Source: Candidatus Aalborgicola danicus
GTDB lineage: Bacteria; Pseudomonadota; Gammaproteobacteria; Burkholderiales; Burkholderiaceae_C
Assembly (NCBI GenBank): GCA_016703945.1
Contig: JADJBC010000041.1
Span: forward strand, 131,558-195,557
DNA length: 64,000 nucleotides
Direction: 5' to 3'
The notes beneath the pieces are model-generated. The model saw only the letters and a program-made list of their open reading frames with translations. It had not been told where the DNA came from and ran no database searches. Of this stretch, positions 6,383-51,987 are shown piece after piece (the stretch's first letter is position 1; every line of letters starts with the position of its first letter). The position numbers and the translations under genes are program-made.

Positions 6383-6431
6383 TGCTACTAATTTGATAGC
6401 TATTAACGCTTATTTCACGGGGGCTACGGCC
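6383..6431 (+). repeat. Family A dispersed ~50-bp repeat, copy 1
   Basis: tgctactaatttgatagctattaacgcttatttcacgggggctacggcc matches the family consensus tGCTAT-n7-ATAGCTGCTnaCGCa-n5-7-CACGAGGGCTAgaGcc. Confidence 0.8.
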
Positions 6432-6439
6432 CCCTTTTT
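6419..6439 (+). terminator. Intrinsic terminator after the DUF2892 gene (built from the 3' end of repeat A1)
   Basis: GGGGGC-tacg-GCCCCC stem-loop followed by TTTTT. Confidence 0.6.
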
Positions 6440-6545
6440 GTCTTTGTAATCGGTTGTTACTGCGGTCAGCCGAGCGCAGACCCTGGTCGTTAAGGGATGA
6501 CAAACCGCTACGTCTAGCGGTAGGGGCTCAGGCCCATCCATCGCC

Positions 6546-6953
6546 ATGCACACCAACCGTGTTTTGCCTACCCCCACTGTTTCACTCCATAAACCCGTGC
6601 TGAACGCCCACTGGTTGGGCCTGTTGCTACTGGCCAGCGGAATGGCTGCGCTGGCACCCCAGGTGCATGCGGAACACCGGTACCCCGCGCAAGGGCCGGT
6701 TGTCCGGGGCTACCAGGGTCCGGACTATCGGCCACTGGTGCGTGTGCAGCCTGCGCCACCGGTGGTGCCGCACCGTTACCTTCGCAGCTACACCGATCCC
6801 CGCCCGGTCGTCATATGGCAACCGCCGCCCAGGCTTGGCCACCGCCACGGGCACTGGTATTCGCCGTACGGCAATGGGCACCGCCATGGATACGAGTCCC
6901 ACTATGCCCCTGTGGTCAAACAGTACGGACCGCCCCGCTATGTTTACCGGTAA
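6546..6953 (+). CDS. Hypothetical secreted Pro/His/Arg/Tyr-rich protein
   Basis: Signal-peptide-like N-terminus (LGLLLLASGMAALAPQVHA) followed by low-complexity PxxHRY/HRHGH segments. No recognisable family. Confidence 0.45.
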   Translation: MHTNRVLPTPTVSLHKPVLNAHWLGLLLLASGMAALAPQVHAEHRYPAQGPVVRGYQGPDYRPLVRVQPAPPVVPHRYLRSYTDPRPVVIWQPPPRLGHRHGHWYSPYGNGHRHGYESHYAPVVKQYGPPRYVYR

Positions 6954-6981
6954 CTGAGACCTTTCAGCGGCTTTGTCTGGG

Positions 6982-7890: not shown

Positions 7891-8137
7891 GTAGTCGCCT
7901 TTTTCAGTTTAGAAACTTGCGGGACAGACCGCAGTCGCGTAGCGACAAGCTCTGTCGCCAACACTTTAGGATTTCGCTTGAGGGCTGTATTGTCATCGCA
8001 ACGCACAAGCAGAGATTTCATGCAACTTTACAAAGCCTTATCGTGGCGCAATCGGAGTGATACACAAGCATTCCATACTTGCAACCAGCCTGATCGCGAT
8101 GTCCGCGTCAGACGCCTACACAGAAAAGGAAGTCACC

Positions 8138-8707: not shown

Positions 8708-8715
8708 GTCTCTAG

Positions 8716-8797
8716 TTCACCGCCGGGCCGCCCCAATGTGAACTGCGTCCCCCTCTTGGGGCACCGACCCGCGAAGCGGCGCAGCGAGGGGGCTACG
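8716..8797 (-). repeat. Family C GC-rich hairpin repeat, copy 1 (reverse orientation)
   Basis: Its reverse complement, ccgtagccccctcgctgcgccgcttcgcgggtcggtgccccaagagggggacgcagttcacattggggcggcccggcggtgaa, aligns along its length with 60511-60582 plus 59016-59024. It lies between convergent genes. Confidence 0.75.
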
Positions 8798-9164: not shown

Positions 9165-9294
9165 GCAGGGCCTTTGGCGGAGTAAAACGGCGATTATGAA
9201 CGGACCGGCCACAGCCGCAGGTCTAGGTTTGACAGAAATCAAGGCGCTATAGTGGTTCACGTTTTACACTGCGCGGCGCCTGCGCCACCCCACC

Positions 9295-10137: not shown

Positions 10138-10139
10138 GC

Positions 10140-10349: not shown

Positions 10350-10377
10350 GCCAACCACGGCGGCCACCGCCACATGC

Positions 10378-10956
10378 TCAACCAAAGGGGCGGATGCCGA
10401 TCAACAGCCCGTGTAATTTGAACGCAAACGCCGCCCAGGCAATCAAACCCACTAGCACGGCCACCACGGTGCCTGACACCGTACCGGCCGGGTACTGTGT
10501 GCCGGCAGCCCGGTCACGTCGGCGCGCGGCGATGAAGTCCACAACGGCCCAGGCCAGAAAGGCGCCAAACAACACCAGGTGAGCCAGATTGCCATTCACC
10601 AACACATGTGCCAACGCCCAGGATTTGACACCCAGGACCATGGGGTGGTGTAGCTTCGCCTTGATGCCATTGCGCGGCACATAGGCTGCTGCCAGCAGCA
10701 CAAAAGCCACCAGGGTCAACAGCGACGCGGCATGGCGCATGCCCACCGGCACCGTCCATAACAAGGTGGGGGTTTCACGCGCAATGCCGAAGCCATAAAT
10801 GATGAGCCCGAACCCGACGATGGAGACCACCGAATAAACACCTTTGTAAGTGCCATCACCCACCCGGGCCAGGGTACGGGTGCGCCAGCCGTCCGCCACG
10901 ATGCGCACCGAATGCACACCCAGAAACATCAGCAAACCAGCAATCAGATAAACCAT
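10378..10956 (-). CDS. NnrU family membrane protein
   Basis: 192 aa. MVYLIAGLLMFLGVHSVRIV...HHPMVLGVKSWALAHVLVNG is the characteristic NnrU sequence. Confidence 0.8.
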   Translation of the reverse strand: MVYLIAGLLMFLGVHSVRIVADGWRTRTLARVGDGTYKGVYSVVSIVGFGLIIYGFGIARETPTLLWTVPVGMRHAASLLTLVAFVLLAAAYVPRNGIKAKLHHPMVLGVKSWALAHVLVNGNLAHLVLFGAFLAWAVVDFIAARRRDRAAGTQYPAGTVSGTVVAVLVGLIAWAAFAFKLHGLLIGIRPFG

Positions 10957-11105
10957 GGTGTTGTTCCTTTAAAAAATCATGTCACCAGCCACGCCCAGGG
11001 CGTTCACGTTCACGCGGTATACGCCAGCCCGTTTGAGCCAGGGCTCTGATGGCTGAGATTTTCAAGCGCGGTTTCAAAAGTTTTCTTTATCCATGACACA
11101 ACATT

Positions 11106-11153
11106 TGCTATAAATTAAATAGCGCTTTGCGCATGATTCACAAGGGCTAGAGC
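11106..11153 (+). repeat. Family A repeat, copy 2
   Basis: tgctataaattaaatagcgctttgcgcatgattcacaagggctagagc. Confidence 0.75.
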
Positions 11154-11193
11154 ACTATTTAACCACTAATTATTGAATCGGGTCTCGGGCGTT

Positions 11194-12141
11194 TCACCGC
11201 GCTGACATAAACAATTTGAAGGCCTCGACCGTCTTGGGGCCGTCTTCTTCATGCGGAACATGGCCCAAGTCGTCAAAGATGACCATCTGTGCCCCCGCAA
11301 TATCGGCCAAAAAACGCTGTGCCGTATCCGGCGGAATCAACCGGTCTTTGGCACCCCACATGACCAGGGTTGGCACTTTAAGTCCTTTGAGGGCGGCTTC
11401 ATCACCACTGTGGAGTTGATCCATCCGGTAGGCCAAGGCCTGGCGGTTGCCGGCGCGCAGAGTCAGCTCGTAATACCGGTCCACCAAATCCGCGGTGACC
11501 TTAGCCGGATCACCATAGACGTTGCGCACACTGCTTTGCACGACACCCCGGGGCAATACATATTCCATCACCACACGCAAGCCCGGCGTGCGGGCGATCG
11601 TAAAACCCAAGGGTACCGATGTCGACTGCAACCGGTAGCCCGCCGAATCAATCAGCACCAACTTTTTTACGCGCTGCGGGTGAGCTACTGCAGTACCCCA
11701 GGCAATTTGTCCACCCAGAGAATTGCCAGCCAATACAAATTGCTGCACACCCATCTGGTCCAGAACGGCCACCACAAAACGCACATAGGCGGCAATGGAA
11801 TAGTCGTTGTCGGGATGGGGTCCGGTCAGCCCGAAGGCGGGCAGATCGAACCGGATGACGCGACGTTGGTGCGTCAGCGCCTGGGTCCAAGCATCCCAGG
11901 TGTGCAGACTGGCCGACGTTCCATGCAACAACACAATTGGCAGCGGATCGCCACGTGGGCCTTCGTCGCGCAGATGCACCTGCATGCCCAACACGGGCAG
12001 GAATTGCGATGGGGCTGGCGCCCAGCGGGCCGACAGTTGTTGCACGGAGCGGTCTGGCGCCCAGGTCGCCAATATACCGGCCATCACAAAAATGGCGCAG
12101 GACAGCAGCACAACACCCAGAACACGCAGCAGAAGTTTCAT
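11194..12141 (-). CDS. Alpha/beta-fold hydrolase (membrane-anchored)
   Basis: HGTSASLHTW oxyanion region, GNSLGG nucleophile elbow, and C-terminal DDLGHVPHEE. The start was taken at MKLLLRVLGV (12141). Confidence 0.85.
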   Translation of the reverse strand: MKLLLRVLGVVLLSCAIFVMAGILATWAPDRSVQQLSARWAPAPSQFLPVLGMQVHLRDEGPRGDPLPIVLLHGTSASLHTWDAWTQALTHQRRVIRFDLPAFGLTGPHPDNDYSIAAYVRFVVAVLDQMGVQQFVLAGNSLGGQIAWGTAVAHPQRVKKLVLIDSAGYRLQSTSVPLGFTIARTPGLRVVMEYVLPRGVVQSSVRNVYGDPAKVTADLVDRYYELTLRAGNRQALAYRMDQLHSGDEAALKGLKVPTLVMWGAKDRLIPPDTAQRFLADIAGAQMVIFDDLGHVPHEEDGPKTVEAFKLFMSAR

Positions 12142-12190
12142 GGGTCTGAACTCTACACGGATCTTTGTCGATGTTGTCAACTAGAAAAGC

Positions 12191-12227
12191 TGTGGATAGT
12201 TTTCGCACAAGACCATGGTTATCCACA
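12191..12227. promoter_or_regulatory. Inverted pair of DnaA boxes in an AT-rich ~400-bp intergenic region
   Basis: TGTGGATAG (12191-12199, one mismatch on the complement) and a perfect TTATCCACA (12219-12227), 19 bp apart. The flanking 12181-12579 is non-coding and visibly AT-rich. Confidence 0.5.
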
Positions 12228-19746: not shown

Positions 19747-20224
19747 CTATTCGGCGCGGGTGGAGACGTCCAGCGCGGTCTTGACCAGTACCTGGCGCAG
19801 CACAAAGCTGGAATGCACACCGGTAACCCCTTCGATGCCGCTCAAGCGGTTCAGCAGCAGGGACTGGTAGTGGTCCATGTCCCGTACGGCAACTTTAAGC
19901 TGGTAGTCGGCTTCCTGGCCGGTGATCAGCAGGCACTCCAGAACTTCCGGCAAGACCTTAACGGCCGCCTCAAAGTTGGCAAAACGGGCCGGGGTATGCA
20001 GGTCCATGGAGACGTGGATCAGAGCCATCAAGGGTCAGGCCCAGCTTCTTGGCGTCCAACAGTGCGCGGTAGGCAACGATCAGCCCCGACTCTTCCAGTA
20101 CACGCACCCGGCGCAGGCAGGGTGAGGGCGACAGGCCAATACGGTCGGCCAGATCCTGGTTGTTGATGCGGCCGTCCTGTTGCAGGATGTCCAGAATCTG
20201 TTGGTCGTAGCGATCCAGTTTCAT
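19747..20224 (-). pseudogene. Lrp/AsnC-family regulator interrupted by a single-base frameshift near 20029
   Basis: The N-terminal HTH (MKLDRYDQQILDILQQDGRINNQDLADRIGLSPSPCLRRVRVLEESGLI...KKLGLTL) is in one frame. The RAM domain (MALIHVSMDLHTPARFANFEAAV...) is in the next frame. Removing one G at about 20029 joins them into a 158-aa Lrp-like protein. Confidence 0.7.
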
Positions 20225-20462
20225 GTCAATGCCGTAAAAATCGGTTTTGTTGGCAGAGTATGCCAAAAACCAGCTATGCAGAGGCTAAAACGCAATCTTC
20301 TGCCGCCTGCGCACGTCTACACTGCATTCAACTGTTACCCACAGCCCAACACAACCCGGTGGACTACTGCCGCCGTTGTGCAGTCCAGGCCCACAAGGCC
20401 ATGCATTGCGAAACCCAACCCCGGGGCATACCCCCGGCCCCGGGGCCGGTCTTTCTTGCATT

Positions 20463-20509
20463 TGCTCTGTTTTTGATAGCTGCTTGCGCTTATTCCACGG
20501 GGGCTAAAC
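20463..20509 (+). repeat. Family A repeat, copy 3
   Basis: tgctctgtttttgatagctgcttgcgcttattccacgggggctaaac. Confidence 0.75.
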
Positions 20510-21225
20510 TAATTTTTGACTGTTGTGTTTTCCAGAAAGGCGACCATCAGGCGGGCGATGTGATGGCCTTCATGTCCGTATTGCAGACTGTCCCGGCTGC
20601 GCTGGTAGTGGTCTTCCCCCAGCGTGTCTTCACGTTTGTCCAGCAGATGGGCGCTAAAGCCCTCATCAAATTCCGGGTGGGCCTGGACACAAAACACCTC
20701 TTGCCCCACCGTGAACGCTGCTACCGGGCAAAAGTCGCTGCTGGCCACCAGTGTGGCGCCAGGAGGTAGCTTAAAAACCTGGTCCTGGTGGCTGGCCAGC
20801 AGGGCGATCCGGGTGCGATCGGCCGAGTAGGGCAGGTCTTGGCGGTGCCAGTCGTAGGTCAAACGCCCGGCACCCCAGCCCTGTGGCGCCCGCCCCACTG
20901 GGGCGCCCATACACAGCGCAATCAGTTGGTGGCCAAAACAGACGCCGACCAATTTCTTGCGTTCAGCCAGCAGCGCAGTGACCTGGCGGCGCAGTTCGAC
21001 GACCCAGGGCTCGTCGGAGAAAGAATCCGCTCCACTGCCGGTCAGCAGCACCGCATCGTAGCCGTCAAAGGAGGCCGGGTACTGGCCCAACGGGGTGTTG
21101 AAAACCTCCATGGTCCAGGTGGCACCGGCATTCTCAAATAGCCGGATAAACATGGCACCAAACCCCCCATAGGCCTGCGCCAGTTCTCCTTCGAGGATGT
21201 CATTTTCAAGAATGCAGAGTTTCAT
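20509..21225 (-). CDS. Class I glutamine amidotransferase-like protein
   Basis: GVCFGHQLIA nucleophile-Cys motif and a C-terminal HPEF. 238 aa. Confidence 0.85.
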   Translation of the reverse strand: MKLCILENDILEGELAQAYGGFGAMFIRLFENAGATWTMEVFNTPLGQYPASFDGYDAVLLTGSGADSFSDEPWVVELRRQVTALLAERKKLVGVCFGHQLIALCMGAPVGRAPQGWGAGRLTYDWHRQDLPYSADRTRIALLASHQDQVFKLPPGATLVASSDFCPVAAFTVGQEVFCVQAHPEFDEGFSAHLLDKREDTLGEDHYQRSRDSLQYGHEGHHIARLMVAFLENTTVKN

Positions 21226-21226
21226 T

Positions 21227-21276
21227 TGCTATACATTTAATAGCTGCTGACGCATGTTCCACGAGGGCTGGAAGCC
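21227..21276 (+). repeat. Family A repeat, copy 4
   Basis: tgctatacatttaatagctgctgacgcatgttccacgagggctggaagcc. It begins 2 nt from the start codon of the amidotransferase gene. Confidence 0.8.
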
Positions 21277-21288
21277 AATATCACTCAA

Positions 21289-22374
21289 TTACTTCTGACT
21301 GGTCCGCCGCGCACGCACCGCGGCGGCAAGCTGCTCCAGCACCGGCACGGTTTGCGCCATGCTGATACAGGCGTCGGTGACCGACACGCCGTGTTTCAAG
21401 GGCTGGTTGGGCGTGATGTCCTGGCGGCCTTCGTTCAAATGGCTTTCGATCATGATGCCGGTGATACGGGCATCACCCGCGGCAATTTGCGCGGCCACTT
21501 CCGCGGCGACGATGATCTGGCGGGCGTGTTGTTTGCTGCTGTTGGCGTGGCTGACGTCGATCATGACCTGCTCACGTAGTCCGGCGGCCTTCAGCAGCGC
21601 GCAGGCTGCGTCCACATCGGAGCGGGCGTAGTTGGTGGTTTTGCCGCCGCGCAGGATCACATGGCAGTCATCATTGCCACGGGTCTCGAAAATCGCGGCC
21701 TGGCCCATCTTGGTCATGCCCATGAAGGAGTGGCTGGCTTGCGCGGCCTGGATGGCGTCGGTGGCGACCTTGATGCCGCCATCGGTGCCGTTCTTGAAAC
21801 CCACCGGGCAGGAGAGGCCGCTGGCCAACTGGCGGTGGCTCTGGCTCTCGGTGGTGCGCGCGCCGATGGCGCCCCAGCTGACCAGTTCGCTGATGAACTG
21901 GGGCGATAGCAAATCCAGAAACTCGGTACCGACCGGCATGTCGATGGCCAAAATGTCCAGCAGCAGCTTGCGCGCCATCTCCAGCCCCTGGTTGATGGCA
22001 AAGCTGCCATCCAGGTGCGGGTCATTGATATAACCCTTCCAACCGACGGTGGTGCGGGGCTTCTCGAAATACACACGCATGACCACCAGCAGGTCGTCAT
22101 TGAAGGCATCGGCCTGCTCCTTGAGTTGCCAGGCGTAGTCCATGGCCTGCTCGTGGTCGTGGATGGAGCACGGACCTACAACGACGATCAGGCGGTCGTC
22201 CCTGCCATGCAGGATGTTGGAAATAGCGGTACGGCTGGTCTCCACCAGGGTCTGGGCCGCGTCCGGGACCGGCAGCTTTTCTTCCAACAGGGCGGGCGTG
22301 ATCAGGGGCCGCACCGCACCAATGCGGGTATCGTCGATGCGGGTCGTGTCGTGGGTGGTGAGTTCGGTCTTCAT
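21289..22374 (-). CDS. 3-deoxy-7-phosphoheptulonate (DAHP) synthase, class I
   Basis: MKTELTTHDTTRIDD...LITPALLEEKLPV...VVVGPCSIHD...KPRTTVGWKG...GAIGARTTESQ is collinear with AroF/G/H. The isoenzyme was not assigned. Confidence 0.9.
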   Translation of the reverse strand: MKTELTTHDTTRIDDTRIGAVRPLITPALLEEKLPVPDAAQTLVETSRTAISNILHGRDDRLIVVVGPCSIHDHEQAMDYAWQLKEQADAFNDDLLVVMRVYFEKPRTTVGWKGYINDPHLDGSFAINQGLEMARKLLLDILAIDMPVGTEFLDLLSPQFISELVSWGAIGARTTESQSHRQLASGLSCPVGFKNGTDGGIKVATDAIQAAQASHSFMGMTKMGQAAIFETRGNDDCHVILRGGKTTNYARSDVDAACALLKAAGLREQVMIDVSHANSSKQHARQIIVAAEVAAQIAAGDARITGIMIESHLNEGRQDITPNQPLKHGVSVTDACISMAQTVPVLEQLAAAVRARRTSQK

Positions 22375-22375
22375 C

Positions 22376-22423
22376 ACTATGAATTTTATAGCTACTAATG
22401 CAATTCGGACGAGGGCTGGAGGC
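22376..22423 (+). repeat. Family A repeat, copy 5
   Basis: actatgaattttatagctactaatgcaattcggacgagggctggaggc. It starts 2 nt upstream of the DAHP synthase start codon. Confidence 0.7.
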
Positions 22424-22504
22424 GTTTTTTTACTGCATCTGCGTGGAGGCAAGTATAGGCACTGGCGACAGGGCTGCACCTTCAAATCCACGACAATTGC
22501 CGCC

Positions 22505-31983: not shown

Positions 31984-31993
31984 CTAATGACCA

Positions 31994-32030
31994 AACCCCC
32001 GGGAGGCCGGGGGTTTGCGCCGTATGGCGC
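31994..32030 (-). terminator. Two adjacent GC hairpins between dnaN and gyrB (possible attenuator/terminator)
   Basis: AAACCCCCGG-gagg-CCGGGGGTTT followed by GCGCC-gtat-GGCGC. There is only a short T-run on the transcribed strand. Confidence 0.35.
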
Positions 32031-32046
32031 TACATTTTCAGTAGCA

Positions 32047-34704: not shown

Positions 34705-34762
34705 TGTGGATAGTTATGGTTTGCTGCACATTGAATTGTAATTTATCAAAACCTTATCCACA
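34705..34762. promoter_or_regulatory. DnaA boxes in the dnaA-rpmH spacer (dnaA autoregulation and/or oriC)
   Basis: TGTGGATAG (34705-34713) and a perfect TTATCCACA (34754-34762) flank an AT-rich stretch (cacattgaattgtaatttatcaaaacc). Confidence 0.6.
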
Positions 34763-35149: not shown

Positions 35150-35548
35150 GTGCAGCGATTGAAATCTAGGCCCCAGTTTCAGGCAGTCCTGGCTGGGAGT
35201 ACTGTAGCTCGGACCGCGCACTTTGCCATGCATTGCTGCCCTCTTGAGTTGCCGCAGCCTCTTAGTCATAGCCCGGCTTTGTTTGCCGTGAACGCGGTAT
35301 GGTTCGGTGCTATGGTTCCTAAGCGTTGGGCAAAACGGGCTGTGACCCGAAACACCATCAAACGTCAGATTTACAGCGTCAGTGTTGATTTTGAGTCCGT
35401 GTTATCCACACGGGCGCATGTGGTCCGATTGCGTGCCGGGTTTGATCGGGTGCAGTTTCCAAGCGCGACGTCCGATGCGCTCAAAGCGGCCGTTCGTGCT
35501 GAATTACGGCTGCTGTTTTCGCGGGTTCAAGAGGCTGTTGCCAAATGA
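35150..35548 (+). CDS. rnpA: Ribonuclease P protein component
   Basis: Basic protein with KRWAKRAVTRNTIKRQIY (RNR-like motif). Positioned between rpmH and yidD. Confidence 0.85.
   Translation: MQRLKSRPQFQAVLAGSTVARTAHFAMHCCPLELPQPLSHSPALFAVNAVWFGAMVPKRWAKRAVTRNTIKRQIYSVSVDFESVLSTRAHVVRLRAGFDRVQFPSATSDALKAAVRAELRLLFSRVQEAVAK
35402..35410 (+). promoter_or_regulatory. Perfect DnaA box inside rnpA
   Basis: TTATCCACA. This is the third perfect copy in the window. Confidence 0.4.
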
Positions 35549-35820
35549 TGCGTGTCGCCCTTATGCAAGTTGTCAAAGCATACCGGATGTTTTTGAGCCC
35601 GTGGTTGGGGTCGTCTTGTCGCTTTGAACCCACTTGTTCCCTGTATGCTCTCACGGCCTTGGAGTCGCATGGTGCGGCGGCCGGTAGTTACCTTGCTGCT
35701 ACTCGAATCGCGCGTTGTCACCCTTGGTGTGCGGGAGGTCTTGATCCTGTGCCCAGTGAAGCTCCCAGGTTGTTTGCCTGGCTGACCCCCTCTTCCCATT
35801 CTGAAAAGAAACGCTCATGA
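35545..35820 (+). CDS. yidD: Membrane protein insertion efficiency factor YidD
   Basis: YRMFLSPWLGSSCRFEPTCSLYALTALESHG...RIARCHPW. ATGA overlaps with both rnpA and yidC. Confidence 0.85.
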   Translation: MMRVALMQVVKAYRMFLSPWLGSSCRFEPTCSLYALTALESHGAAAGSYLAATRIARCHPWCAGGLDPVPSEAPRLFAWLTPSSHSEKKRS

Positions 35821-37550
35821 ACGATATTCGCCGCACCATTTTGTGGGTGATTTTTGGCTTCTCCATGGTTCTGTTGTGGGATCAGTGGCAGATACACAAC
35901 GGTAAGAAAGCGACTTTTTTCCCAGCTCCGGCTCAGCAGGTTGCAGTTGCCACCAATGGTACGACCGGTTCTGTTCCAAGTGTGAATTCAGCGGGTGTGC
36001 CCAGCAGCGCGGGGTCGGCGCCCCTTGTGTCCGTAGCGCCTGCTACCACCGGGTCGGCGTTGGTGAACCCGTCCGTGCCCAAAGAACGTTTTGAGGTTAC
36101 CACCGATGTGTTGAAACTGACCTTTGAGTCCGAAGGTGGTTCTTTGGTTCGTACCGAGTTTCTTAAGCACACCGACATGAGCGACAAGAGCAAGAATTTT
36201 GTACTGCTCGATGACAACAAGGAGCGTGTTTATTTGGCGCAGTCCGGCGTGATCGGTGGCGGCGCTGCTGGCAGCCTTCCGACCCACAAGACCCCCATGA
36301 CCATGAGTGGCGCTCGAACGCTCAAAGACGGCGATGACGAATTGGTAGTCAAGTTCACTTCGGGAGAGGTGGGCGGCATCAAGTTGGTCAAGACCTACAC
36401 CCTGCGCCGCGGTGCTTACGATATGGCGGTCAAACACGAACTGACCAATGTGTCCAATGCGCCGCTGTCACCGCAGCTCTATCTGCAACTGGTTCGCGAC
36501 GGCAGCAAACCGCCAGGCGAGTCGTCTTTCTATTCCACTTTCACCGGACCAGCGGTTTATACGACGGCCAAAAAATACCAAAAGGTGGAGTTCGACGAGA
36601 TCAAGAAAAAGAAGGCCGACTACGAAAAGCAGGCAACGGATGGTTATGTGGCGATGGTCCAGCATTACTTCGCCAGCGCGTGGATGCTGCCCGATGGTAT
36701 GGCGCGCACGATTTCTGTCGATGGTGTGGACATTGGCTCCTCAGTTGCCGATTGCTGTTACCGTGCCACGATGATCACGGCCCCCGAGACAATTGCCCCG
36801 GACACCACCAAAGTTATCGAGACCAAGTTTTTTGCCGGCCCACAACAGGAAACTACGCTGGAAAAACTGGCACCTGGCCTGGAATTGGTTAAGGACTACG
36901 GTTGGCTTACCATTTTGGCCAAACCCCTTTATTGGCTGCTCGACAAGTTGCACGGCTTCATCCTGAATTGGGGGTGGTCCATCGTCGCCCTGGTGGTATT
37001 GCTGAAGATCGCCTTCTACTGGCTCAATGCCAAAGCGTATGCAAGCATGGCCAAGATGAAGGCGGTAAACCCCAAGATCATGGAGATGCGCGAGCGCCTG
37101 AAGGACAACCCGCAACAGATGCAGCAGGAGATGATGCGGATTTACCGTGAGGAGAAAGTCAACCCCATGGGAGGCTGCTTCCCCATCATGGTCCAAATTC
37201 CCGTATTCATTGCGCTTTACTGGGTTCTGTTGTCCAGCGTGGAGATGCGCAACGCGCCGTGGATTCTGTGGATCAAGGATTTGTCGTCGCCTGATCCCTA
37301 CTACATCCTGCCCCTGGTCATGACGTTGACGACTTTGCTGCAAACCGCGTTGAACCCCACGCCGCCGGACCCGATGCAAGCCAAGATGATGTGGTTTATG
37401 CCACTGATCTTCAGCGTGATGTTCTTCTTCTTCCCGGCCGGTCTGGTGTTGTATTGGATTACCAACAACATATTGTCCATTGCCCAGCAGTGGATCATCA
37501 ATACCCGTATGGGTGTGCCGCCGCAGTTTAATCTGCCGAAGTTCAAGTAA
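35817..37550 (+). CDS. yidC: Membrane protein insertase YidC
   Basis: 577 aa. C-terminal core GWSIVALVVLLKIAFYWL...MMRIYREEKVNPMGGCFPIMVQIPVFIALYWVL. Confidence 0.95.
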   Translation: MNDIRRTILWVIFGFSMVLLWDQWQIHNGKKATFFPAPAQQVAVATNGTTGSVPSVNSAGVPSSAGSAPLVSVAPATTGSALVNPSVPKERFEVTTDVLKLTFESEGGSLVRTEFLKHTDMSDKSKNFVLLDDNKERVYLAQSGVIGGGAAGSLPTHKTPMTMSGARTLKDGDDELVVKFTSGEVGGIKLVKTYTLRRGAYDMAVKHELTNVSNAPLSPQLYLQLVRDGSKPPGESSFYSTFTGPAVYTTAKKYQKVEFDEIKKKKADYEKQATDGYVAMVQHYFASAWMLPDGMARTISVDGVDIGSSVADCCYRATMITAPETIAPDTTKVIETKFFAGPQQETTLEKLAPGLELVKDYGWLTILAKPLYWLLDKLHGFILNWGWSIVALVVLLKIAFYWLNAKAYASMAKMKAVNPKIMEMRERLKDNPQQMQQEMMRIYREEKVNPMGGCFPIMVQIPVFIALYWVLLSSVEMRNAPWILWIKDLSSPDPYYILPLVMTLTTLLQTALNPTPPDPMQAKMMWFMPLIFSVMFFFFPAGLVLYWITNNILSIAQQWIINTRMGVPPQFNLPKFK

Positions 37551-37562
37551 CCCCAGAGTTTG

Positions 37563-37625
37563 GTAACCCCCTGAAGCGCCTGCGGAGCCTCCCCCCAGGG
37601 GGCGATGCCAGTGGCCCGGCAGAGC
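37563..37625 (+). repeat. Family C repeat, copy 3 (shorter/diverged)
   Basis: gtaaccccctgaagcgcctgcggagcctccccccagggggcgatgccagtggcccggcagag aligns with copy 2 (taGCCCCCT..GCGG..CCCCCC-n-GGGGG..GGCCCGGC). It lies between yidC and mnmE. Confidence 0.55.
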
Positions 37626-37671
37626 CGGTTCCACGGTATCCCTGGCAAGACAACCCTTTCCTCCGTCTCTT

Positions 37672-39078
37672 ATGCTTGCTCGGCACCACGATCCCATCGT
37701 CGCCATTGCCACGGCCCCGGGGCGTGGGGCGGTCGGGATTGTGCGCGTTAGCGGCAAAAGCTTAGGGCCGTGGGTGGAACACCTGTTGGGTCGCAGTCTG
37801 CGTCCCCGTGAGGCGACCTACCTGCCGTTCAACGACGGGAACGGGGTGGCGATTGACCAGGGCTTGGCTTTGTTTTTTCCGGGGCCGCATTCGTTTACCG
37901 GTGAAGACGTTTTGGAGTTGCAAGCCCACGGTGGTCCGGTGGTGCTGCAATTGCTGCTGGCGCGGGCGTTGGAAGCGGGATCCGAGAGTCAAGGAGCCGA
38001 TGGACAAGCGTGGTTGCCTAGCCTGCGATTGGCGCAGCCGGGTGAGTTTTCTGAGCGGGCGTTCTTGAATGACAAAATTGATTTGGCCCAGGCCGAGGCG
38101 ATTGCCGATTTGATAGATGCCAGCACCGAGGCAGCTGCGCGCAGTGCGGCGCAGTCCTTGTCCGGCGCTTTTTCGCGAGAAATCCATTCTTTGCGTGACA
38201 CCTTGGTTCATTTGCGGATGTTGGTAGAGGCGACGCTGGACTTCCCTGAGGAGGAAATCGATTTTCTCGAACGGTCCGATGCCAAGGGGCAATTGTTGCG
38301 TTTGCAACAAGCGTTGCAGCGCGTGGTGCAACGCGCCTTTCAGGGTGCGTTGTTGCGCGAGGGCATCACAGTGGTGATTGCGGGACAACCCAATGCGGGT
38401 AAGTCATCTTTGCTCAACGCCTTGGCGGGTGCCGAGTTGGCTATCGTGACGCCGATCGCAGGTACGACACGCGACAAAGTACAGCAGACCATTCAGATAG
38501 CAGGTGTACCTATCCATGTGGTCGACACGGCTGGCCTGCGACCCAGCGATGATGATGTCGAGAAGCTGGGTATTGCGCGCACCTGGGAGGCGATTAGCAA
38601 TGCCGATGCAGTGCTGTTTTTGCATGACTTGACACGTGTGTATGCTATTGAATATATAGCTGCTGACGCAGCAATCACGAGGGCTATAGCCGAAAAACTC
38701 TCAGAACATGTGCCGGTGATCGATGTTTGGAACAAGGCCGACGCGATGTCTGGCGTGTTACCAGAGTCAGGCATTGTCATTTCCGCTAAAACCGGTGCTG
38801 GTCTGGAGCATTTGCGCCAAAAGTTGCTGGAAGCTGCCGGCTGGCAGGCTCAGACTGGCGGTGTGTTTATTGCGCGGGAGCGGCATTTACAGGCTCTGCA
38901 GCGGGTGACTTTGCACTTGGAGGCTGCGACGCAACACCTAGCCACGGACAACCAGGCCTTGGACTTGCTCGCTGAAGAATTGCGTTTAGGCCAGACTGCG
39001 CTGAATCAAATCACTGGAGACTTCACCTCCGATGACTTGCTGGGCGTGATTTTCTCGAAATTTTGTATTGGCAAGTAG
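37672..39078 (+). CDS. mnmE: tRNA uridine-5-carboxymethylaminomethyl synthesis GTPase MnmE
   Basis: [23 protein letters not shown]-domain [14 protein letters not shown] / DTAGLR / NKAD, and C-terminal FCIGK. Confidence 0.95.
38643..38691 (+). repeat. Family A repeat, copy 6, in frame inside mnmE
   Basis: tgctattgaatatatagctgctgacgcagcaatcacgagggctatagcc is translated as [16 protein letters not shown], between the LFLHDL segment and the NKAD (G4) motif. Confidence 0.8.
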
Positions 39079-45571: not shown

Positions 45572-45597
45572 GATTGGGGTTAATCCCCAGTCGGTGC

Positions 45598-46017
45598 TTA
45601 GTAGCTGTTGCGGCCACCGCCGTAACCACCACCACCGCCGCCGCCACCACTGCGGCCGCCGCCGGCGCCACCACCGTAGCCGCCACCACCGCCGTAACCA
45701 CCACCGCCGCTACGGCCGCCGCCAGCACCGCCGCCAAAGCCGCCGCCGCCAGTGCGGGGAGGACGAGCTTCCATCGGACGTGCTTCGTTCACCACGAGAC
45801 CGCGGCCACCGAATTGTTGACCATTCATGCCACCGATAGCGGCTTGTGCTTCTGCATCGCTGCCCATTTCCACAAAGCCGAAGCCTTTGGAACGGCCCGT
45901 GTCACGTTCCATCATGACTTTGGCGCTGGAAACGGAACCGTAGGCTGCAAACGCTTGTTGCAAGTCTTCATCACGGAAAGAATAGGGCAGGTTGCCCACG
46001 TAAAGTTTGTTGCCCAT
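45598..46017 (-). CDS. RRM-domain RNA-binding protein with Gly-rich tail
   Basis: MGNKLYVGNLPYSFRDEDLQQAF (RNP2), KGFGFVEM (RNP1), then a GGGGYGGG tail. Confidence 0.85.
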   Translation of the reverse strand: MGNKLYVGNLPYSFRDEDLQQAFAAYGSVSSAKVMMERDTGRSKGFGFVEMGSDAEAQAAIGGMNGQQFGGRGLVVNEARPMEARPPRTGGGGFGGGAGGGRSGGGGYGGGGGYGGGAGGGRSGGGGGGGGYGGGRNSY

Positions 46018-46985: not shown

Positions 46986-47101
46986 GTCCCATTCAATGGC
47001 GCACACGGGTCGCTCGTGAAAAGTGCGATGGTAAACCCGGAGACGAGATAATTTGAATGGTCTGTAAGAAAGCGACCCTGCACCAGACTAAACCGTAACC
47101 A

Positions 47102-47128
47102 GCAACAAGGTGCAATCTGTGTGCGTCT
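47102..47128 (+). promoter_or_regulatory. Weak candidate ECF-type promoter for the DUF2282 operon
   Basis: GCAAC, 17 nt, then CGTCT, about 42 nt upstream of the ATG. It is pattern-only and low information. Confidence 0.25.
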
Positions 47129-47169
47129 CCGCTGGTTTTACTTTAACTGTCCCTTTTAGGAGTTTTCCA

Positions 47170-47442
47170 ATGAACCAACGTGCCATGATCGCTGCCACGG
47201 CAGCCGCTGTGATGTCCCTGTCGATGGTGTCGGTGCCAGCAGCCGCCCAGGAAAAAGAGAAATGTTTTGGTATTGCCAAGGCGGGTCAAAACGATTGCGC
47301 CAGCGTGAATGGTGCCCACTCCTGCGCCGGCCAGTCCAAGGTCGACATGGACAAAATGGAATGGAAATATGTGGCCAAGGGCAGTTGCAAGAGCATGAAG
47401 GGTCTGAGCCTGGATGAAGCCAAGGCCGCAAAAAAGGCGTAA
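47170..47442 (+). CDS. DUF2282 Cys-rich secreted peptide (BufA/GigP-like RiPP precursor)
   Basis: Sec signal peptide MNQRAMIAATAAAVMSLSMVSVPAAA, then QEKEKCFGIAKAGQNDCASVNGAHSCAGQSKVDMDKMEWKYVAKGSCKSM with four conserved Cys. AGGAG RBS. Confidence 0.85.
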   Translation: MNQRAMIAATAAAVMSLSMVSVPAAAQEKEKCFGIAKAGQNDCASVNGAHSCAGQSKVDMDKMEWKYVAKGSCKSMKGLSLDEAKAAKKA

Positions 47443-47472
47443 CGCCCTGGATTGCGTGTATCGCGCCTTTTT
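47431..47472 (+). terminator. Possible attenuator hairpin between precursor and MNIO genes
   Basis: AAAAAGGCG (spanning the last codons and stop) pairs with CGCCTTTTT 24 nt downstream. A T5 run follows. Not energy-evaluated. Confidence 0.3.
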
Positions 47473-47487
47473 CTTGAGTTTGAGGCC

Positions 47488-48456
47488 ATGACACGCCTGA
47501 CCGTGGAAGATGCCGATACGGCAGCCGCCAGCAACGAGAACGAGGCAAATGTGGCGAACGTGGGGAATGTGGGTATCGGCTGGCGGCATCCCCATTACGC
47601 CGAGTTGCTGGAGCGCCTACCAGCCTTGGATTTTCTCGAAGTGCACTCCGAGAATTTCTTTGCGCCGGGCGGAGCGTCCCAGGCCGTGCTGGAGCAAGGG
47701 CGTGCCCACTATCCCGTCAGCCTGCATGGCGTCGGTCTGTCACTGGGCTCGGCCGCGGGCCTGGATGATTGGCATCTGGACCAGTTGCAGCGTCTGGTGC
47801 AACACATTGACCCGGTGCGGGTGAGTGACCATGCCTCCTTTGCGCGCGGCGTTTTCAAAGGCGCCGTCGTGCATGCGGCTGATCTGCTGCCGATCCCGTT
47901 CAGTTCCGAGGCGCTCGACGTGTTGTGCGCCAATGTCAGCCGGGTGCAGGACCGTCTGCAGCGACGGTTCATGGTGGAAAACCTGTCTGCCTATCTGCGC
48001 TGGAAGTTGCCAGACACGGAACGCGTCTGGGCGGAAACCGAATTCCTGACCACCCTGGCCCGCCGTACCGGCTGTCAGCTGTTGGTGGATGTGAACAATA
48101 TTTATGTCAACGCCTTGAACGCGCAGTTGCGCGAAGGCAGTGTGTGTGATCCGGTGCAAGCCTGCCGCGAATGGCTGGATGCCATTCCTGCTGACATCGT
48201 GGGCGAAATGCATCTGGCAGGGCATTGCCGTGTCAGCGACGAACACGGTGACATCGCTATCGACGACCATGGCAGCCAGGTCTGTGACCCGGTCTGGGAC
48301 TTGTACCGACAGGCGGTGTCGCGTTTTGGCGCCGTGCCGACGTTGCTGGAATGGGACACCGATGTGCCAACGCTGGACGTCTTGCTAGACGAAGTGCGGC
48401 GTGCCCGCGGAGTCTGCGCCGAAGTGGCGGCCCTGTCGGTTGGGGTGCCAGCATGA
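47488..48456 (+). CDS. DUF692 / MNIO-family (multinuclear non-heme iron oxidative) enzyme, BufB/GigA-like
   Basis: [10 protein letters not shown]...[11 protein letters not shown]...[12 protein letters not shown]...RVSDHASF...ENLSAY...[12 protein letters not shown]...EMHLAGH...IDDHGS...TLLEWD are UPF0276/DUF692 hallmark blocks. Confidence 0.88.
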
Positions 48457-49250
48457 GCAACCTGGCCCGGCAGCAGCAGGCCCTGCTGGATGCCCTGTTG
48501 GCATGGCCCCCAAAAAATGCTATAAAAAACATAGCTGCTTACGCAATTGATTCGAGGGCTAGAGGCCTAAAAGCCTATCAAACCCATGGACATATGCTGG
48601 CCCAACGCGCGTTGCAAGCAGCCTACCCGGTGGTGGCGCAGATGCTGGGGGAGGAGAGTTTTGCCGACCTGGCCCGTGCCCTGTGGCACGCCCAACCGCC
48701 GGTGCGTGGTGACATCGCGTGCTGGGGCAGTGGTTTGCCGGCCTTTTTGCAAACCAGTGAACAGTTGCAGGACGAGCCATATTTGCCGGATGTGGCGCGG
48801 GTGGAATGGGGGTTGCACCAGTGCGCTGGGGCGTCTGACCGTGCTGCGGACTTGTCGACATTGGCCTTGCTGACCACGGACGACCCCGCCAGCCTCACTC
48901 TGGTGCTGGCGCCGGGCTGTGCAGTGGTGCGCAGTGCCTGGCCTATTGCCAGCATTCTTGGTGCCCACCTGGACGGCCAGCCCTCGTTGCAAGAGGCCGG
49001 GGCTCAACTGAGGGCCGGCGTGGCGCAGGATGTGGTGGTCTGGCGCGCCGGGTTGAAACCCCGCTTTCGGCTGGCGGTAGATGGCGAGGTCGGGGCGGTG
49101 ATGGCGTTGTTGCGTGGAGAGTCCCTGGACCAGGCGTTATCACTGGCGCCTCAACTCGATTTCGCTCTCTGGTTGCCCATGGCCGTGCAAAGCGGTTTGC
49201 TTGTGTCGGTCCAGGTTTTACCAGGTGGACTGGGGAGCACCGCCGCTTGA
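48453..49250 (+). CDS. DUF2063 protein (BufC/GigB-like MNIO partner)
   Basis: [15 protein letters not shown]..., ...[24 protein letters not shown]...[18 protein letters not shown] overlap with the DUF692 gene. Confidence 0.8.
48518..48567 (+). repeat. Family A repeat, copy 7, in frame inside the DUF2063 gene
   Basis: tgctataaaaaacatagctgcttacgcaattgattcgagggctagaggcc is translated as [16 protein letters not shown], in the same repeat frame as the mnmE copy. Confidence 0.8.
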
Positions 49251-49301
49251 TATGGGTGCACCATTGCGCATCCCAACGGCCGCACAGCCCAACGCCTTGC
49301 C

Positions 49302-51506
49302 ATGGAACCTACCCCAACCCATCACACGCCGGTGACGCCTAGCACCACAATGCCGGCTGATTTGCCAGGCATGGCAGAGCAAGCGTGGCAGCGTTGGTGG
49401 CCGCAACGCATAGGCTGGCGGCTGGCGCTGGGGTTTGGTGTGCTGGTGGTCTTGATGCTGGTGGCATTGGCGCAAGCGACCTACCAGATCCGCAACATCA
49501 CCGGTGTCACGCAACGCTTTGCGACCGGTGACATGCAACGTTTGCTGAGGGTGCAGGCCTTGTCCATGCAGACCGAAGGGGTTGGCAACGCGTTGATTCG
49601 GCTAATCAATGCCCCACGTGACAGCCGCGTTGCGGAATATGCCGATGTGGACGAACGCAATCGGCGCATCGACGGCGCGATTGAGTCGCTTGTCCAAGAC
49701 ATGCGGGGCTCTGACCAAGAGGAAAACCTTAAGCGTTTGGTCGAATGCCGTGCGGTCTACGCGGCGGCCTTTATTGCTACAGCCGACGAGATTGAGGCTG
49801 ATAACTCTTCGCAAGCCTGGCGTTTGCTCAACGACCGTGTCAATCCCGCATTAAAAACCATGCTGGTGGAATCGAACGCCTTGTTGCAGAGTGAGCGGCA
49901 ACGGATCGAGTCGCAACTGGACGACGCCCAACGCCAATTCGAGCGCGCTGCGCTGTGGGTGGCGGGTCTGTCGCTGCTGGCTGTGGTGTTGGCCACGTGG
50001 CTGGGGGTACGCACCACCCGCAGCGTGGTGGGCCCGCTGGCGCAGCTCGAAGTGGCGGCCCAGCGCATTGCCGAAGGCGACTACAGCAGCCGTGTGTCCA
50101 CCACCCGCACACAAGAGGTTGACCGCGTTGGCCAGGCCCTGAACACCATGACCGACGCCGTGGCGCAACGTGAACGCGACATCGAACACCTAGCCTTCCA
50201 CGACCCGCTGACCGGTTTGCCCAACCGCACGGCGCTGTTCCAGCCCCAGCAAGCCAGCGCAACCGAACCCCATTGCCTGGCGCTGATGGACTTGGCCCGC
50301 CTCAAGGCCATCAACGAAACCTTGGGCTACACCACCGGCGATACGCTGATCCAGCAAACGGCGCAGCGCGCCAGCCTGGCACTGCAGCAGGCTGCGGCCG
50401 ATGGATTGATAGGCCCGGACCCCATCGTGGCGCGCCTGTCCGGTGGCACCTTTGCTGCGATCTTTTCCGCCCCCAACCGGGCGACTGTGGAGGCTCTACG
50501 CGAACGCATCGAGCAAGCCATGGGCGCGCCGGTGCAATGCAGCGGCCATAGTGTGGATTTGAGCTTGACGTATGGCCTGGCGGACTCTGGCGACCGGGCA
50601 CAGGGTAGCAAAGCATTGCCGGTGGACACGCTGCTGCGCAATGCCGAGGTGGCCCTGCACAGCGCCAAGCGGGCGGCCGTGGGCTTTGCCTGGCACAGCG
50701 AGGCGCAAGAGGCGGCGCGTTTGAGCCACCTGAGTCTGCTGTCGGATTTGCGCCAGGCGGTGGCCACCTCCCAATTGCAGATGTGGTTGCAACCCAAGTT
50801 CTCACTGGCCACGGGCAGGGCCGTCGGCACCGAGGCCCTGGTGCGCTGGCAGCACCCGACACGCGGCTTTGTGTCGCCAGCCGAGTTTGTGCCCTTTGCC
50901 GAACAGGCCGGCTACATCACCTTGGTCACCGAATGGATGCTGCAGCAGGCCCTGCGCACGCTGGCCGTCTGGGCACCCACGCACCCCGAGCTGAGCATTG
51001 CGGTCAACGTCAGCACGCGCGATCTGCAACACAAAGGCTTTGCCGAGCGTGTGGCCCGCATGATTGAGGCCAGTGGTGTGCCCGCCAAACGCCTGCGCCT
51101 GGAGATCACCGAGAGTGGCCTGATGGACGACCCCACGCACAGTGTGGCCCTGCTGTACGAGCTGCGCGAGATCGGTACACCGCTGTCGATTGACGACTTC
51201 GGCACCGGCTATTCGTCGTTGGCCTACCTGCAAAAGTTGCCGGTCAGCGAGCTCAAAATTGACCGCAGTTTCGTTGACAAGCTGGACCAGTCTCCTGGCA
51301 CCCAAAAGCTGGTGCGCGCCATGACCGAGATGGGCCATGGCCTGGACTTGATGGTGACGGCCGAAGGTGTGGAGACCGAGGCCGAGCGCGAAACCATCAC
51401 GCGCCTGGGCTGTGATGTGATGCAGGGTTATCTGGCCAGCAAGCCACTGCATGGGGACAAGCTGCAAGCGTGGTTTGATGCGCTGCCGGTGCATGCCGCG
51501 TCCTAG
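49302..51506 (+). CDS. Membrane sensor with HAMP, degenerate GGDEF and EAL domains (c-di-GMP phosphodiesterase type)
   Basis: TM plus helical sensor. HAMP (VGPLAQLEVAAQRIAEGDY). GGDEF position reads RLSGGTF. EAL blocks EALVRW, LEITES, DDFGTGYSSL, KIDRSF and AEGVET are intact. Confidence 0.88.
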   Translation: MEPTPTHHTPVTPSTTMPADLPGMAEQAWQRWWPQRIGWRLALGFGVLVVLMLVALAQATYQIRNITGVTQRFATGDMQRLLRVQALSMQTEGVGNALIRLINAPRDSRVAEYADVDERNRRIDGAIESLVQDMRGSDQEENLKRLVECRAVYAAAFIATADEIEADNSSQAWRLLNDRVNPALKTMLVESNALLQSERQRIESQLDDAQRQFERAALWVAGLSLLAVVLATWLGVRTTRSVVGPLAQLEVAAQRIAEGDYSSRVSTTRTQEVDRVGQALNTMTDAVAQRERDIEHLAFHDPLTGLPNRTALFQPQQASATEPHCLALMDLARLKAINETLGYTTGDTLIQQTAQRASLALQQAAADGLIGPDPIVARLSGGTFAAIFSAPNRATVEALRERIEQAMGAPVQCSGHSVDLSLTYGLADSGDRAQGSKALPVDTLLRNAEVALHSAKRAAVGFAWHSEAQEAARLSHLSLLSDLRQAVATSQLQMWLQPKFSLATGRAVGTEALVRWQHPTRGFVSPAEFVPFAEQAGYITLVTEWMLQQALRTLAVWAPTHPELSIAVNVSTRDLQHKGFAERVARMIEASGVPAKRLRLEITESGLMDDPTHSVALLYELREIGTPLSIDDFGTGYSSLAYLQKLPVSELKIDRSFVDKLDQSPGTQKLVRAMTEMGHGLDLMVTAEGVETEAERETITRLGCDVMQGYLASKPLHGDKLQAWFDALPVHAAS

Positions 51507-51520
51507 CGCATTGCGCTGTC

Positions 51521-51908
51521 TTATTTGCCAATGTCGGTGGGGTCACCCAGCGATGCGTTCAATGCCACTGCTTCTAGTGTGAGACGGCTGGCAGTAGCCG
51601 AATCCACGCTGTCCCCCGCACGCAGTTCAATAGTGGCCATTTCATATTTGCCGCCAGGTTTGAGACGGGGATTCAGGTGACGCAAGCGCTTGCCGCGCCA
51701 GAAACCGAATAACACCCGTTCTTCCTCCCGCACGGATCAGCAGCACCGGGCCGTTGGACAGGTAGACCAGATGGCCCCACTTGATGGCTTCGTCCAGCTT
51801 TGCACCGCTGCGAACGGCCGCGCGCAAGCTCTCAACACACGTGTGTTGCCAGCCGGTCAGTGCGGCGACATAGGCGTCCGGGTTGGTGGCGGGGGTTGAC
51901 TTCTTCAT
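51521..51908 (-). pseudogene. DUF1801 (YdhG-like) protein interrupted by a single-base frameshift near 51727-51730
   Basis: MKKSTPATNPDAYVAALTGW...KWGHLVYLSNGPVLLIRA is in one frame. EEERVLFGFWRGKRLRHLNPRLKPGGKYEMATIEL... is in the next frame. An extra G in a G-run links them. Confidence 0.6.
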
Positions 51909-51937
51909 CCGTGGGAGGTCGCTGGACCCATTAAAAC

Positions 51938-51987
51938 GCTACAAAAAAATAGTAGCTGACTACGCTATATCCACGAGGGCTAGCGGT
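51938..51987 (+). repeat. Family A repeat, copy 8
   Basis: cgctacaaaaaaatagtagctgactacgctatatccacgagggctagcgg. The first hairpin shows a compensatory change (GCTAC/GTAGC instead of GCTAT/ATAGC). Confidence 0.75.

Follow-up and report, generated by a model that had tools for sequence, protein, structure and literature searches.

A stretch of 64,000 nucleotides from Candidatus Aalborgicola danicus (contig JADJBC010000041.1, positions 131,558 to 195,557), which we refer to as the window, carries eight copies of a short dispersed repeat that lies in intergenic spacers as well as, in frame, inside protein-coding genes. The window has a GC content of 59% and contains gyrB, dnaN and dnaA on the minus strand as well as yidC and mnmE on the plus strand (Table 1). 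With respect to dnaA, five copies are found on the left and three on the right, in line with the original prediction, made from the sequence alone, that the copies occur on both sides of this gene.

Table 1. Repeat copies in the window and the genes used as landmarks, with the evidence for each placement
Feature	Position	Strand	Setting	Evidence
gyrB-dnaN-dnaA	29335-34688	-		
dnaA	33276-34688	-		
yidC-mnmE	35817-39078	+		
Copy 1	6380-6446	+	Starts 5 nt past the stop of a YgaP-like gene (6109-6375, +)	nhmmer E 5e-13; Pfam YgaP-like_TM
Copy 2	11103-11169	+	Intergenic; an alpha/beta hydrolase gene (11194-12180, -) stops on one side and nnrU (10378-10956, -) starts on the other	nhmmer E 7e-13; Pfam
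Copy 3	20460-20526	+	Antisense, behind a GATase gene (20509-21225, -)	nhmmer E 2e-11; Pfam GATase
Copy 4	21224-21290	+	Whole 63-nt spacer from the DAHP synthase stop (21289) to the GATase ATG (21225)	nhmmer E 2e-18
Copy 5	22372-22438	+	Divergent region between DAHP synthase (ATG 22374, -) and an MFS transporter (+)	nhmmer E 1e-12; Pfam
Copy 6	38640-38706	+	In mnmE (37672-39078, +), in frame, sense	Pfam TrmE_N, MMR_HSR1 and MnmE_helical on both sides; translation
Copy 7	48515-48581	+	In a DUF2063 gene (true start ~48450, end 49250, +), in frame, sense	Pfam DUF2063 spans the copy; translation
Copy 8	51936-52002	+	Intergenic, ~430 nt past a HAMP-GGDEF-EAL gene (49302-51506, +)	nhmmer E 1e-11; Pfam; alignment
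Copy 9 (probable, decayed)	~31993-32049	-	Directly behind dnaN	Weak match alone; orthologous to the copy in L092

The repeat family is real. All eight copies were recovered where the original prediction had placed them, all on the plus strand. A 5' motif, GCTAT-N7-ATAGCTGCT, matched the window five times with at most two mismatches, against 0.16 matches expected, and a 3' motif, CACGAGGGCTA, matched seven times with at most one mismatch, against 0.8 expected. A profile built from the eight copies recovered exactly these eight from the window with E values of 4e-18 to 6e-13, the next match following at 1.6e-3, and an improved nhmmer profile built from 150 copies returned the same eight (E 1e-11 to 1e-18). 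Upon calculating the information content per column over ~180 copies, we found the repeat to be sharply bounded at positions -17 and ~+49, counted from the T of an invariant TAGC, and the unit is therefore ~67 bp long rather than the ~50 bp first proposed. Its consensus reads AaTTGCTAYnAATTTnATAGCTGCTyACGCAnnTTccACGAGGGCTAgaGGCCnATTTnnC, to which copy 4 comes nearest, and the window copies share a mean column identity of 63% with one another. The 3' end exists in two forms, the majority form GGCCnATTTnnC and the other GGCCnAAAAGnC, as seen in copies such as those of the related loci L067, L012, L038 and L100 and window copies 6 and 7. The A-rich form occurs mostly in coding copies read in the sense frame, where it encodes Q/E-K, and this looks like either the inversion of a small loop in a terminal hairpin or selection for the A-rich form in coding copies. 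The family has apparently not been described so far: a full-text literature search with diagnostic sequence strings of the repeat matched no paper, and a keyword search returned no description of such a repeat in Comamonadaceae.

Relatives were sampled by scanning one genome per species with a 21-base pattern, which returned at least 116 loci, nearly all from Rhodoferax, Polaromonas or metagenome-assembled genomes of Burkholderiales. These listed 8-kb loci hold 189 copies, 73 of them beyond those that had selected the loci, which amounts to about one copy per 11 kb, compared to one per 8 kb in the window. Copies are also present on four Comamonadaceae plasmids. More distant relatives (L123) carry a diverged version, GATAGCTGCCAACGCTTGATGCACAAGCGCTGGTGGCATTTTTGACC, the centre of which is a perfect CGCTTG/CAAGCG hairpin that is degenerate in the family of the window. 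Judging from the loci listed, the family is confined to the Rhodoferax/Polaromonas part of the Comamonadaceae, and other Comamonadaceae hold diverged sister versions.

Two of the eight window copies lie in frame inside protein-coding genes, a location that the original prediction had missed. Copies 6 and 7 share one reading frame (T GCT ATn ...), encoding ~20-22 and 21 residues, respectively, and the consensus is stop-free in exactly one sense frame and mostly in one antisense frame. The segment encoded by copy 6 lies within the G domain of MnmE and is present in 11/11 aligned homologues, which are proteins of 76-93% identity; an AlphaFold model of the window MnmE, with a mean pLDDT of 59, was too low in confidence to place the segment reliably and was set aside. 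For copy 7, the DUF2063 homologues P0130 and P0132 share both the N-terminus and the segment with the window gene. In the relatives, open reading frames (ORFs) of 300-1187 residues run through copies. The copy falls within a Pfam match in PutA (three copies, one sense and two antisense), PepN, RNase II, enoyl-CoA hydratase (ECH), ROK kinase and squalene/phytoene synthase. For sulfite reductase, KdtA, RpoN and a ResIII helicase, its place is between the domains matched or outside them, and MetH, acyl-CoA dehydrogenase (ACAD), MiaA, MnmE and CCA-adding enzyme were further host proteins. A full HMMER scan with a 30-column profile of the window's own peptides gave 14 matches, including a CCA-adding enzyme with two copies and the DUF2063 orthologues. 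Overall, a strict test places 29 of 185 copies within coding sequence and gene calls place 35 of 161 there (~16-22%), the latter evenly split between 18 sense and 17 antisense copies. As a separate observation on the surroundings of copy 7, its DUF2063 gene overlaps, stop to start, with a gene of the MbnB/TglH/ChrH family (DUF692; 47452-49250 for the pair, plus strand). Pairs of DUF692 and DUF2063 genes are typical of operons for ribosomally synthesized and post-translationally modified peptides, with a small precursor gene upstream; an ORF of 110 residues is located at 47110-47442, upstream of this pair.

Outside genes, the copies are packed closely against their neighbours. The next ORF lies a median of 11-40 nt away from the edge of the element, the divergent side excepted; an antisense gene starts at the 5' edge in 37/192 copies, and an antisense gene stops in or just past the 3' part in 48/192. 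The earlier remark that several copies abut start codons holds for copies 4 and 5, which touch the minus-strand ATGs of the GATase and DAHP synthase genes, respectively. Copy 4 is antisense to the DAHP synthase (aroG) and GATase genes between which it lies, and this order of gene, element and gene is kept in L117, L119, L121 and L122, while L118 keeps the element behind aroG; in L117, L118, L121 and L122, aroG stops at the TAG contained in the CTAG of the element. Similarly, the GATase stop codon (CTA on the plus strand, 20509-20511) lies inside the 3' part of copy 3, copy 2 is antisense to both of its flanking genes, and copy 8, in which hairpin 1 has a 2-nt insertion, ends 29 nt short of the stop of a GNAT acetyltransferase gene (52031-52636, minus strand). 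On a Diaphorobacter plasmid, cobN and a TonB-dependent receptor gene show the same gene-abutting layout in the NCBI annotation. Beside copy 3, we noted that an Lrp/AsnC-type regulator (19747-20266, minus strand) is split into overlapping ORFs in different frames, with the HTH_AsnC part at 19970-20266 and the ligand-binding part at 19747-20031, representing either a frameshifted pseudogene or a sequencing error.

At copy 5, the gene-strand sequence of the hairpin 1 loop is TATAAAAT, located 9 nt ahead of the DAHP synthase ATG. A further sequence upstream of aroG, TAAAATTC, is kept even in orthologues without the rest of the element (L127, L133). The loop was also read, on this strand and at this distance from the ATG, as TATAAAATTC (22372-22400; loci L117-L140), and no Shine-Dalgarno sequence is visible there. 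It could serve as the -10 box of a leaderless mRNA or as an AU-rich region for initiation. As for a sigma-70 promoter within the element itself, inspection of the consensus by eye in both orientations found a -10-like TATnAAAT in the antisense orientation with no -35, and this candidate was rejected.

The copies are old. Pairs of loci keep them at orthologous positions within flanking DNA that is 67-92% identical, and none of 218 junction queries from which the element had been removed found a clean empty site in any of the fetched loci. A set of 80 metagenome aroG loci likewise showed presence, decay or lost synteny, with no precise empty site. Copy 5 has a counterpart in the closest orthologues, a visibly decayed one in L118 and L140, and none in the distant orthologues, and the mnmE copy has decayed in L199. 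A probable ninth copy in the window, on the minus strand behind dnaN, is not significant by itself (E 7-12 with the improved profile) and is orthologous to a detectable copy at 5431-5496 of L092. This relic retains hairpin 1 as GCTAC-N7-GTAGC (32029-32045), and its 3' part is now a GC-rich terminator hairpin (31996-32013). Among the relatives fetched, L092 is the closest, with 86% identity in gyrB and dnaN. Two segments of the window, ~23.7-26.1 kb and 26.9-29.3 kb, are missing from it; they have a lower GC content (~53-56%) and are possible indels or islands beside gyrB.

The original prediction had emphasized a strict orientation bias of the copies and read it as a sign of a strand-specific element, that is, a structured RNA, a replication- or transcription-polar site, or a single-stranded DNA substrate of a Y1 (IS200/RAYT-type) transposase. 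Indeed, all eight window copies lie on the G-rich strand, and an 8/8 pattern has a two-sided p of 0.008; because the pattern was picked out after it had been seen, we treat it as chance. The copies are sense to adjacent plus-strand genes in four cases and antisense to minus-strand genes in three or four, and with such a split, gene direction is not the explanation for the one-strand pattern. In the related loci, where mixed orientation proved common, adjacent copies were co-oriented in 50 and opposed in 30 of 80 pairs, a mild excess (p = 0.03) that is in itself favourable to strand specificity, and of the 56 loci with multiple copies 30 were uniform and 26 mixed. The sense strand coincided with the G-rich strand in 42.5% of the relatives' copies (32:48 for loci with an absolute skew above 0.03), and there was no link with gene direction either (>E> 35, <E< 50, convergent 24, divergent 17, coding sense 18, coding antisense 17). 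Hence, going by neighbour orientation, GC skew and gene direction in the related loci, strand polarity is not a property of the family; the window itself also contains the minus-strand relic behind dnaN, and the shared orientation of its eight copies is a local accident. As the bias is local to the window, the replication-polar, transcription-polar and single-stranded transposase readings are left unsupported.

For the RNA variant of this idea, we found that the inverted repeat GCTAT/ATAGC and its variant GCTAC/GTAGC in copy 8 are present as first noted, while compensatory change is not general across copies. With RNAalifold, no more than four pairs were retained, all invariant (TAGC with GCTA), at an energy of -0.7 kcal/mol. 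In hairpin 1, 69/150 copies leave the closing pair unpaired and only four show compensatory change, and shuffled controls gave equal values. A possible second helix between alignment columns 26-32 and 42-48, which would speak for a strand-specific element, has 93% of its cells paired and relies on U-G pairs, which the sense strand alone can form; it varies on one side only, and shuffles equalled the observed values. The consensus folds with z values of -0.8 and -1.3 in the two orientations (-13.6 kcal/mol at z = -0.8). The window contained no Rfam match at the gathering score, and a search of 20400-22500 at a permissive E gave only chance-level matches (E > 3), none within the core of a copy. 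Thus, across RNAalifold, two explicit helix models and single-sequence folds, secondary structure is conserved by covariation in no helix and significant stability is confined to copy 1, the sole outlier among the folds (z = -3.2). There, a terminator scan detected a hairpin in the 3' part of the copy, GGGGGCTACGGCCCCC, followed by TTTTT (6419-6434), with six G-C pairs and TTTTTGTCTT, 44 nt past the stop codon of the ygaP-like gene and on the same strand, so that the suggestion of an intrinsic terminator stem in one copy stands: by its stem-loop and T-run, copy 1 qualifies as a predicted intrinsic terminator. The (A/G)TAGC motif of the repeat does recall the GTAG-tagged REPs (PMC3733652). Taken together, and considering as well that about one-fifth of the copies, sense and antisense alike, are translated as part of a protein, we regard a strand-specific element as very improbable.

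Some features of the window stand apart from the repeat. It contains 18 DnaA-box matches against 7.2 expected, with 34705-34762, 35402-35410 and 12191-12227 as the listed areas and perfect boxes at 34754 (upstream of dnaA), 35402 (near rpmH/rnpA) and 12219, and its GC skew changes sign near 10-12 kb and not at dnaA. Two tandem 44-nt direct repeats, 84% identical (CTTGTTGGTCAGTTGGGGACAGAGCTGAAGGGCTGTCCCGCAAG) and unrelated to the repeat family, lie at 55857-55944 at the junction of two minus-strand genes. A 52-nt direct repeat, 83% identical between 53378-53429 and 61305-61356, is found near the 5' ends of the minus-strand genes 52636-53517 and 60597-61400 and could stem from paralogous N-termini or from a regulatory region common to both genes. 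Finally, periodic GC-rich repeats of 9-15 nt (CCACCGCCG...) at 45599-45763 would encode a glycine-rich stretch on the minus strand.

We consider it rather probable that the family is an old, non-autonomous repeat resembling the RPEs of Rickettsia, with largely fixed, orthologously inherited copies that have partly been co-opted. It would probably have spread long ago as a non-autonomous mobile sequence, with most present copies being fixed survivors that were inherited at orthologous sites and that persisted only where harm was small. Such sites would comprise short intergenic spacers, which are often filled completely, and genes in which the copy is read in one of the frames that the consensus leaves free of stops, namely one sense frame and mainly one antisense frame. 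The sense frame encodes A-(I/T)-x-x-I-A-A-x-A-x-x-T-R-A-x-G, and in-gene copies would be translated as a segment of 22-23 residues, as with RPEs. Co-option, which is observed directly as far as position is concerned and suggested by that position as far as function is concerned, would take two forms. For a sense copy behind a gene, the 3' GGC..GCC hairpin with its T-run may act as, or evolve into, an intrinsic terminator, as in copy 1 and the dnaN relic; for an antisense copy, the CTAG would provide the stop of the upstream gene while the AT-rich end adjoins the next ATG, as in copies 3-5.

Several observations weigh against this explanation. Mobility is without direct evidence: in addition to the missing pair of filled and empty sites, direct repeats of 3-8 nt at all offsets flanked at most 10 of 185 copies, against ~3 expected, giving no signal of target-site duplications, and no terminal inverted repeats are evident in the consensus by inspection, no formal scan having been run. 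Since target duplications and evident inverted repeats are both missing, it is the dispersed, multi-copy distribution, including plasmids, that points to past mobility. No candidate transposase was obtained from the 64-kb window and the 1-8-kb fragments of relatives. Moreover, in sets of aroG orthologues, which were selected by protein and independently of the repeat, the block columns of the element are 76-80% identical, the variable columns 49-58% and the flanks 35-40%; the registers were set by the best consensus match, which partly inflates the conservation of the blocks. This slower decay of the blocks contradicts pure neutral decay. In six mnmE orthologues, the segment has a GC content at third codon positions of 0.21-0.53, compared to 0.55-0.70 for the rest of the gene, and synonymous codons are identical in 57% of cases within it versus 40% elsewhere, at a lower amino-acid identity of 60% versus 77%. 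Several coding copies add little or no length, and one copy in a CCA-adding enzyme itself encodes the conserved RRD-x-TINxxA nucleotidyltransferase motif, which would not be expected if the element had simply been inserted into a tolerant loop.

Block conservation of this kind could indicate a functional duplex DNA site for a host protein, be it nucleoid-associated, topological or chromosome-organizing, that selection retains even within genes. The blocks exceed both variable columns and flanks at orthologous sites, the AT-rich rare codons of mnmE persist with their excess of synonymous identity in six lineages, orientation is indifferent to transcription and strand as expected for a duplex, and copies recur at fairly regular intervals, about one every 8-11 kb. 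Against such a site, orthologous copies do decay (L118 and L140 at aroG, L199 in mnmE, and the dnaN relic), no protein that binds it is known, and the block conservation, besides its partial inflation by the choice of register, could stem from gene conversion among copies. To our knowledge, there is no known class of site of 60 bp or more with such a copy number. Hence, we view a selected duplex site as unlikely, though not negligibly so.

The coding copies bring up a different alternative, in which the repeat is an uptake-signal-like or copy-and-replace motif, copies of which arise or are renewed by a conversion-like replacement of resident sequence that resembles them. The net length changes of the host proteins vary: MetH gains 22 residues relative to 1MSK, CCA-adding enzyme 20 relative to 3H37 and ACAD 13 relative to 5IDU, MnmE gains only 4 relative to E. 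coli MnmE, and MiaA loses 3 relative to a homologue. While MnmE and MiaA are thus what replacement would predict, MetH and CCA-adding enzyme resemble ordinary insertions of one element. The copy in CCA-adding enzyme is full-length (49 bits), has AT-rich rare codons and encodes ITINSIA exactly at the site of the family's RRD-FTINAMA motif, with no second native FTINAMA motif after it. In the same vein, the copy upstream of aroG overlaps TAAAATTC, the sequence shared with orthologues that have no other part of the element, and conserved blocks are maintained across orthologues. The proteins used for comparison come from distant species (E. coli, P. aeruginosa, T. maritima), and loops differ in length in any case. 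Known uptake sequences measure 9-12 bp and are about 10 times denser than this repeat, which counts against the analogy, and overall we judge copy-and-replace to be improbable. If true, it could overwrite resident sequence, including the catalytic-core motif of CCA-adding enzyme and the promoter-proximal leader of aroG, and would be a mode of spread that has not been described for small bacterial repeats.

Jointly, the block conservation, the mnmE codons, the varied length changes and the CCA motif leave room for a DNA-level function, concerted evolution or similarity-guided replacement. That the repeat is not inert, with its blocks selected as a DNA site for a host factor or its copies spreading or being renewed by similarity-guided copy-and-replace, seems to us a minority possibility, and the slower decay of the blocks raises the testable question of whether a host function is attached to the repeat. 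Returning to the old, RPE-like repeat that we favour, its coexistence with coding sequence in free-living bacteria is a more interesting property than the strand pattern that first drew attention. In-frame selfish repeats in essential genes are a textbook oddity of Rickettsia and are usually tied to the reductive evolution of an intracellular parasite. Finding in-frame repeats in mnmE, metH, putA, rpoN, miaA and cca of free-living, GC-rich Comamonadaceae indicates that the phenomenon is not peculiar to degenerate genomes. The copies offer hundreds of natural experiments on how proteins tolerate or use a fixed 22-residue insert. Furthermore, the repeat accounts for odd AT-rich patches of rare codons and for gene ends that fall inside repeats, and it is a useful marker for annotating and binning Rhodoferax and Polaromonas genomes.

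Compared with known small repeats, the family fails the defining tests of MITEs, REP/REPINs, IS200-type elements, BREs and Rfam families. The view of the original prediction that it is neither a classical MITE nor a known REP was borne out, in the first case by the lack of a target-duplication signal and, by inspection, of inverted termini. REPs and REPINs are imperfect, GC-rich palindromes of 20-40 nt with a GTAG or CGTC tag that are extragenic, often occur as inverted doublets and are mobilized by RAYTs (PMC3733652). The repeat is similarly short and abundant, lies mostly at gene ends, can act as a terminator, as the copy 1 hairpin suggests, and has (A/G)TAGC motifs, but its stems of 4-5 bp surround an AT-rich loop, 16-22% of its copies are intragenic, it has no strand bias, and no REPIN doublets were noted, no search having been aimed at them. 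The orientation bias with respect to the replicating strand that marks IS200/IS605 elements is not seen in the relatives. BREs, known from Bordetella and Comamonadaceae, are ~90 bp long, 69% GC and often tandem, and read TTTTGGCCGCGGGCCGCCCAAGGCAAAAAAGCCCCCTCGGGGGGCAGC... (Hot et al. 2011, PMC3110155); they share with the repeat a host group (Polaromonas, Rhodoferax, Acidovorax), a mostly intergenic location with some copies in coding sequence, and a lack of co-orientation with replication. Their sequence is unrelated to the repeat, and we ruled out identity between the two, as the published supplementary BRE sequences have no motif in common with it.

Closer likenesses are found in MIRUs and, above all, RPEs. 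MIRUs, as cited in PMC3110155, are intercistronic, with flanking ORF ends that overlap or touch them, and have a fixed orientation relative to the operon and variable tandem arrays. The repeat similarly occupies short spacers, holding stop codons and abutting start codons (copies 3-5, the aroG orthologues, cobN and the TonB-dependent receptor gene), but it is single at each site, the sole close pair being two copies 81 nt apart in L056, occurs in either orientation and is also present within genes. RPEs (Ogata et al. 2000) are, as summarized in PMC3733652 and PMC2229807, palindromic repeats of ~100-150 bp that lie between genes and in frame in housekeeping genes, are translated as an extra peptide segment and are inherited at orthologous sites, and that, like the repeat, are not known to have a transposase, terminal inverted repeats or target duplications. 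The repeat differs in being 67 bp long and barely palindromic, with stems of 4-5 bp and a folding energy that is not significant (z = -0.8), instead of forming a long, stable palindrome; it resides in a betaproteobacterium of another phylum-level lineage that is free-living and GC-rich and has a genome of normal size; and its coding copies occur in both orientations, some of them apparently replacing resident sequence rather than adding to it. The likeness drawn here is one of behaviour: both are small, high-copy and non-coding in appearance, both are found intergenically as well as in frame inside functional housekeeping genes, and the copies of both are inherited at orthologous sites. The closest known counterpart of the repeat is the RPE of Rickettsia, with an intercistronic behaviour like that of MIRUs and a use as terminator like that of REPs.

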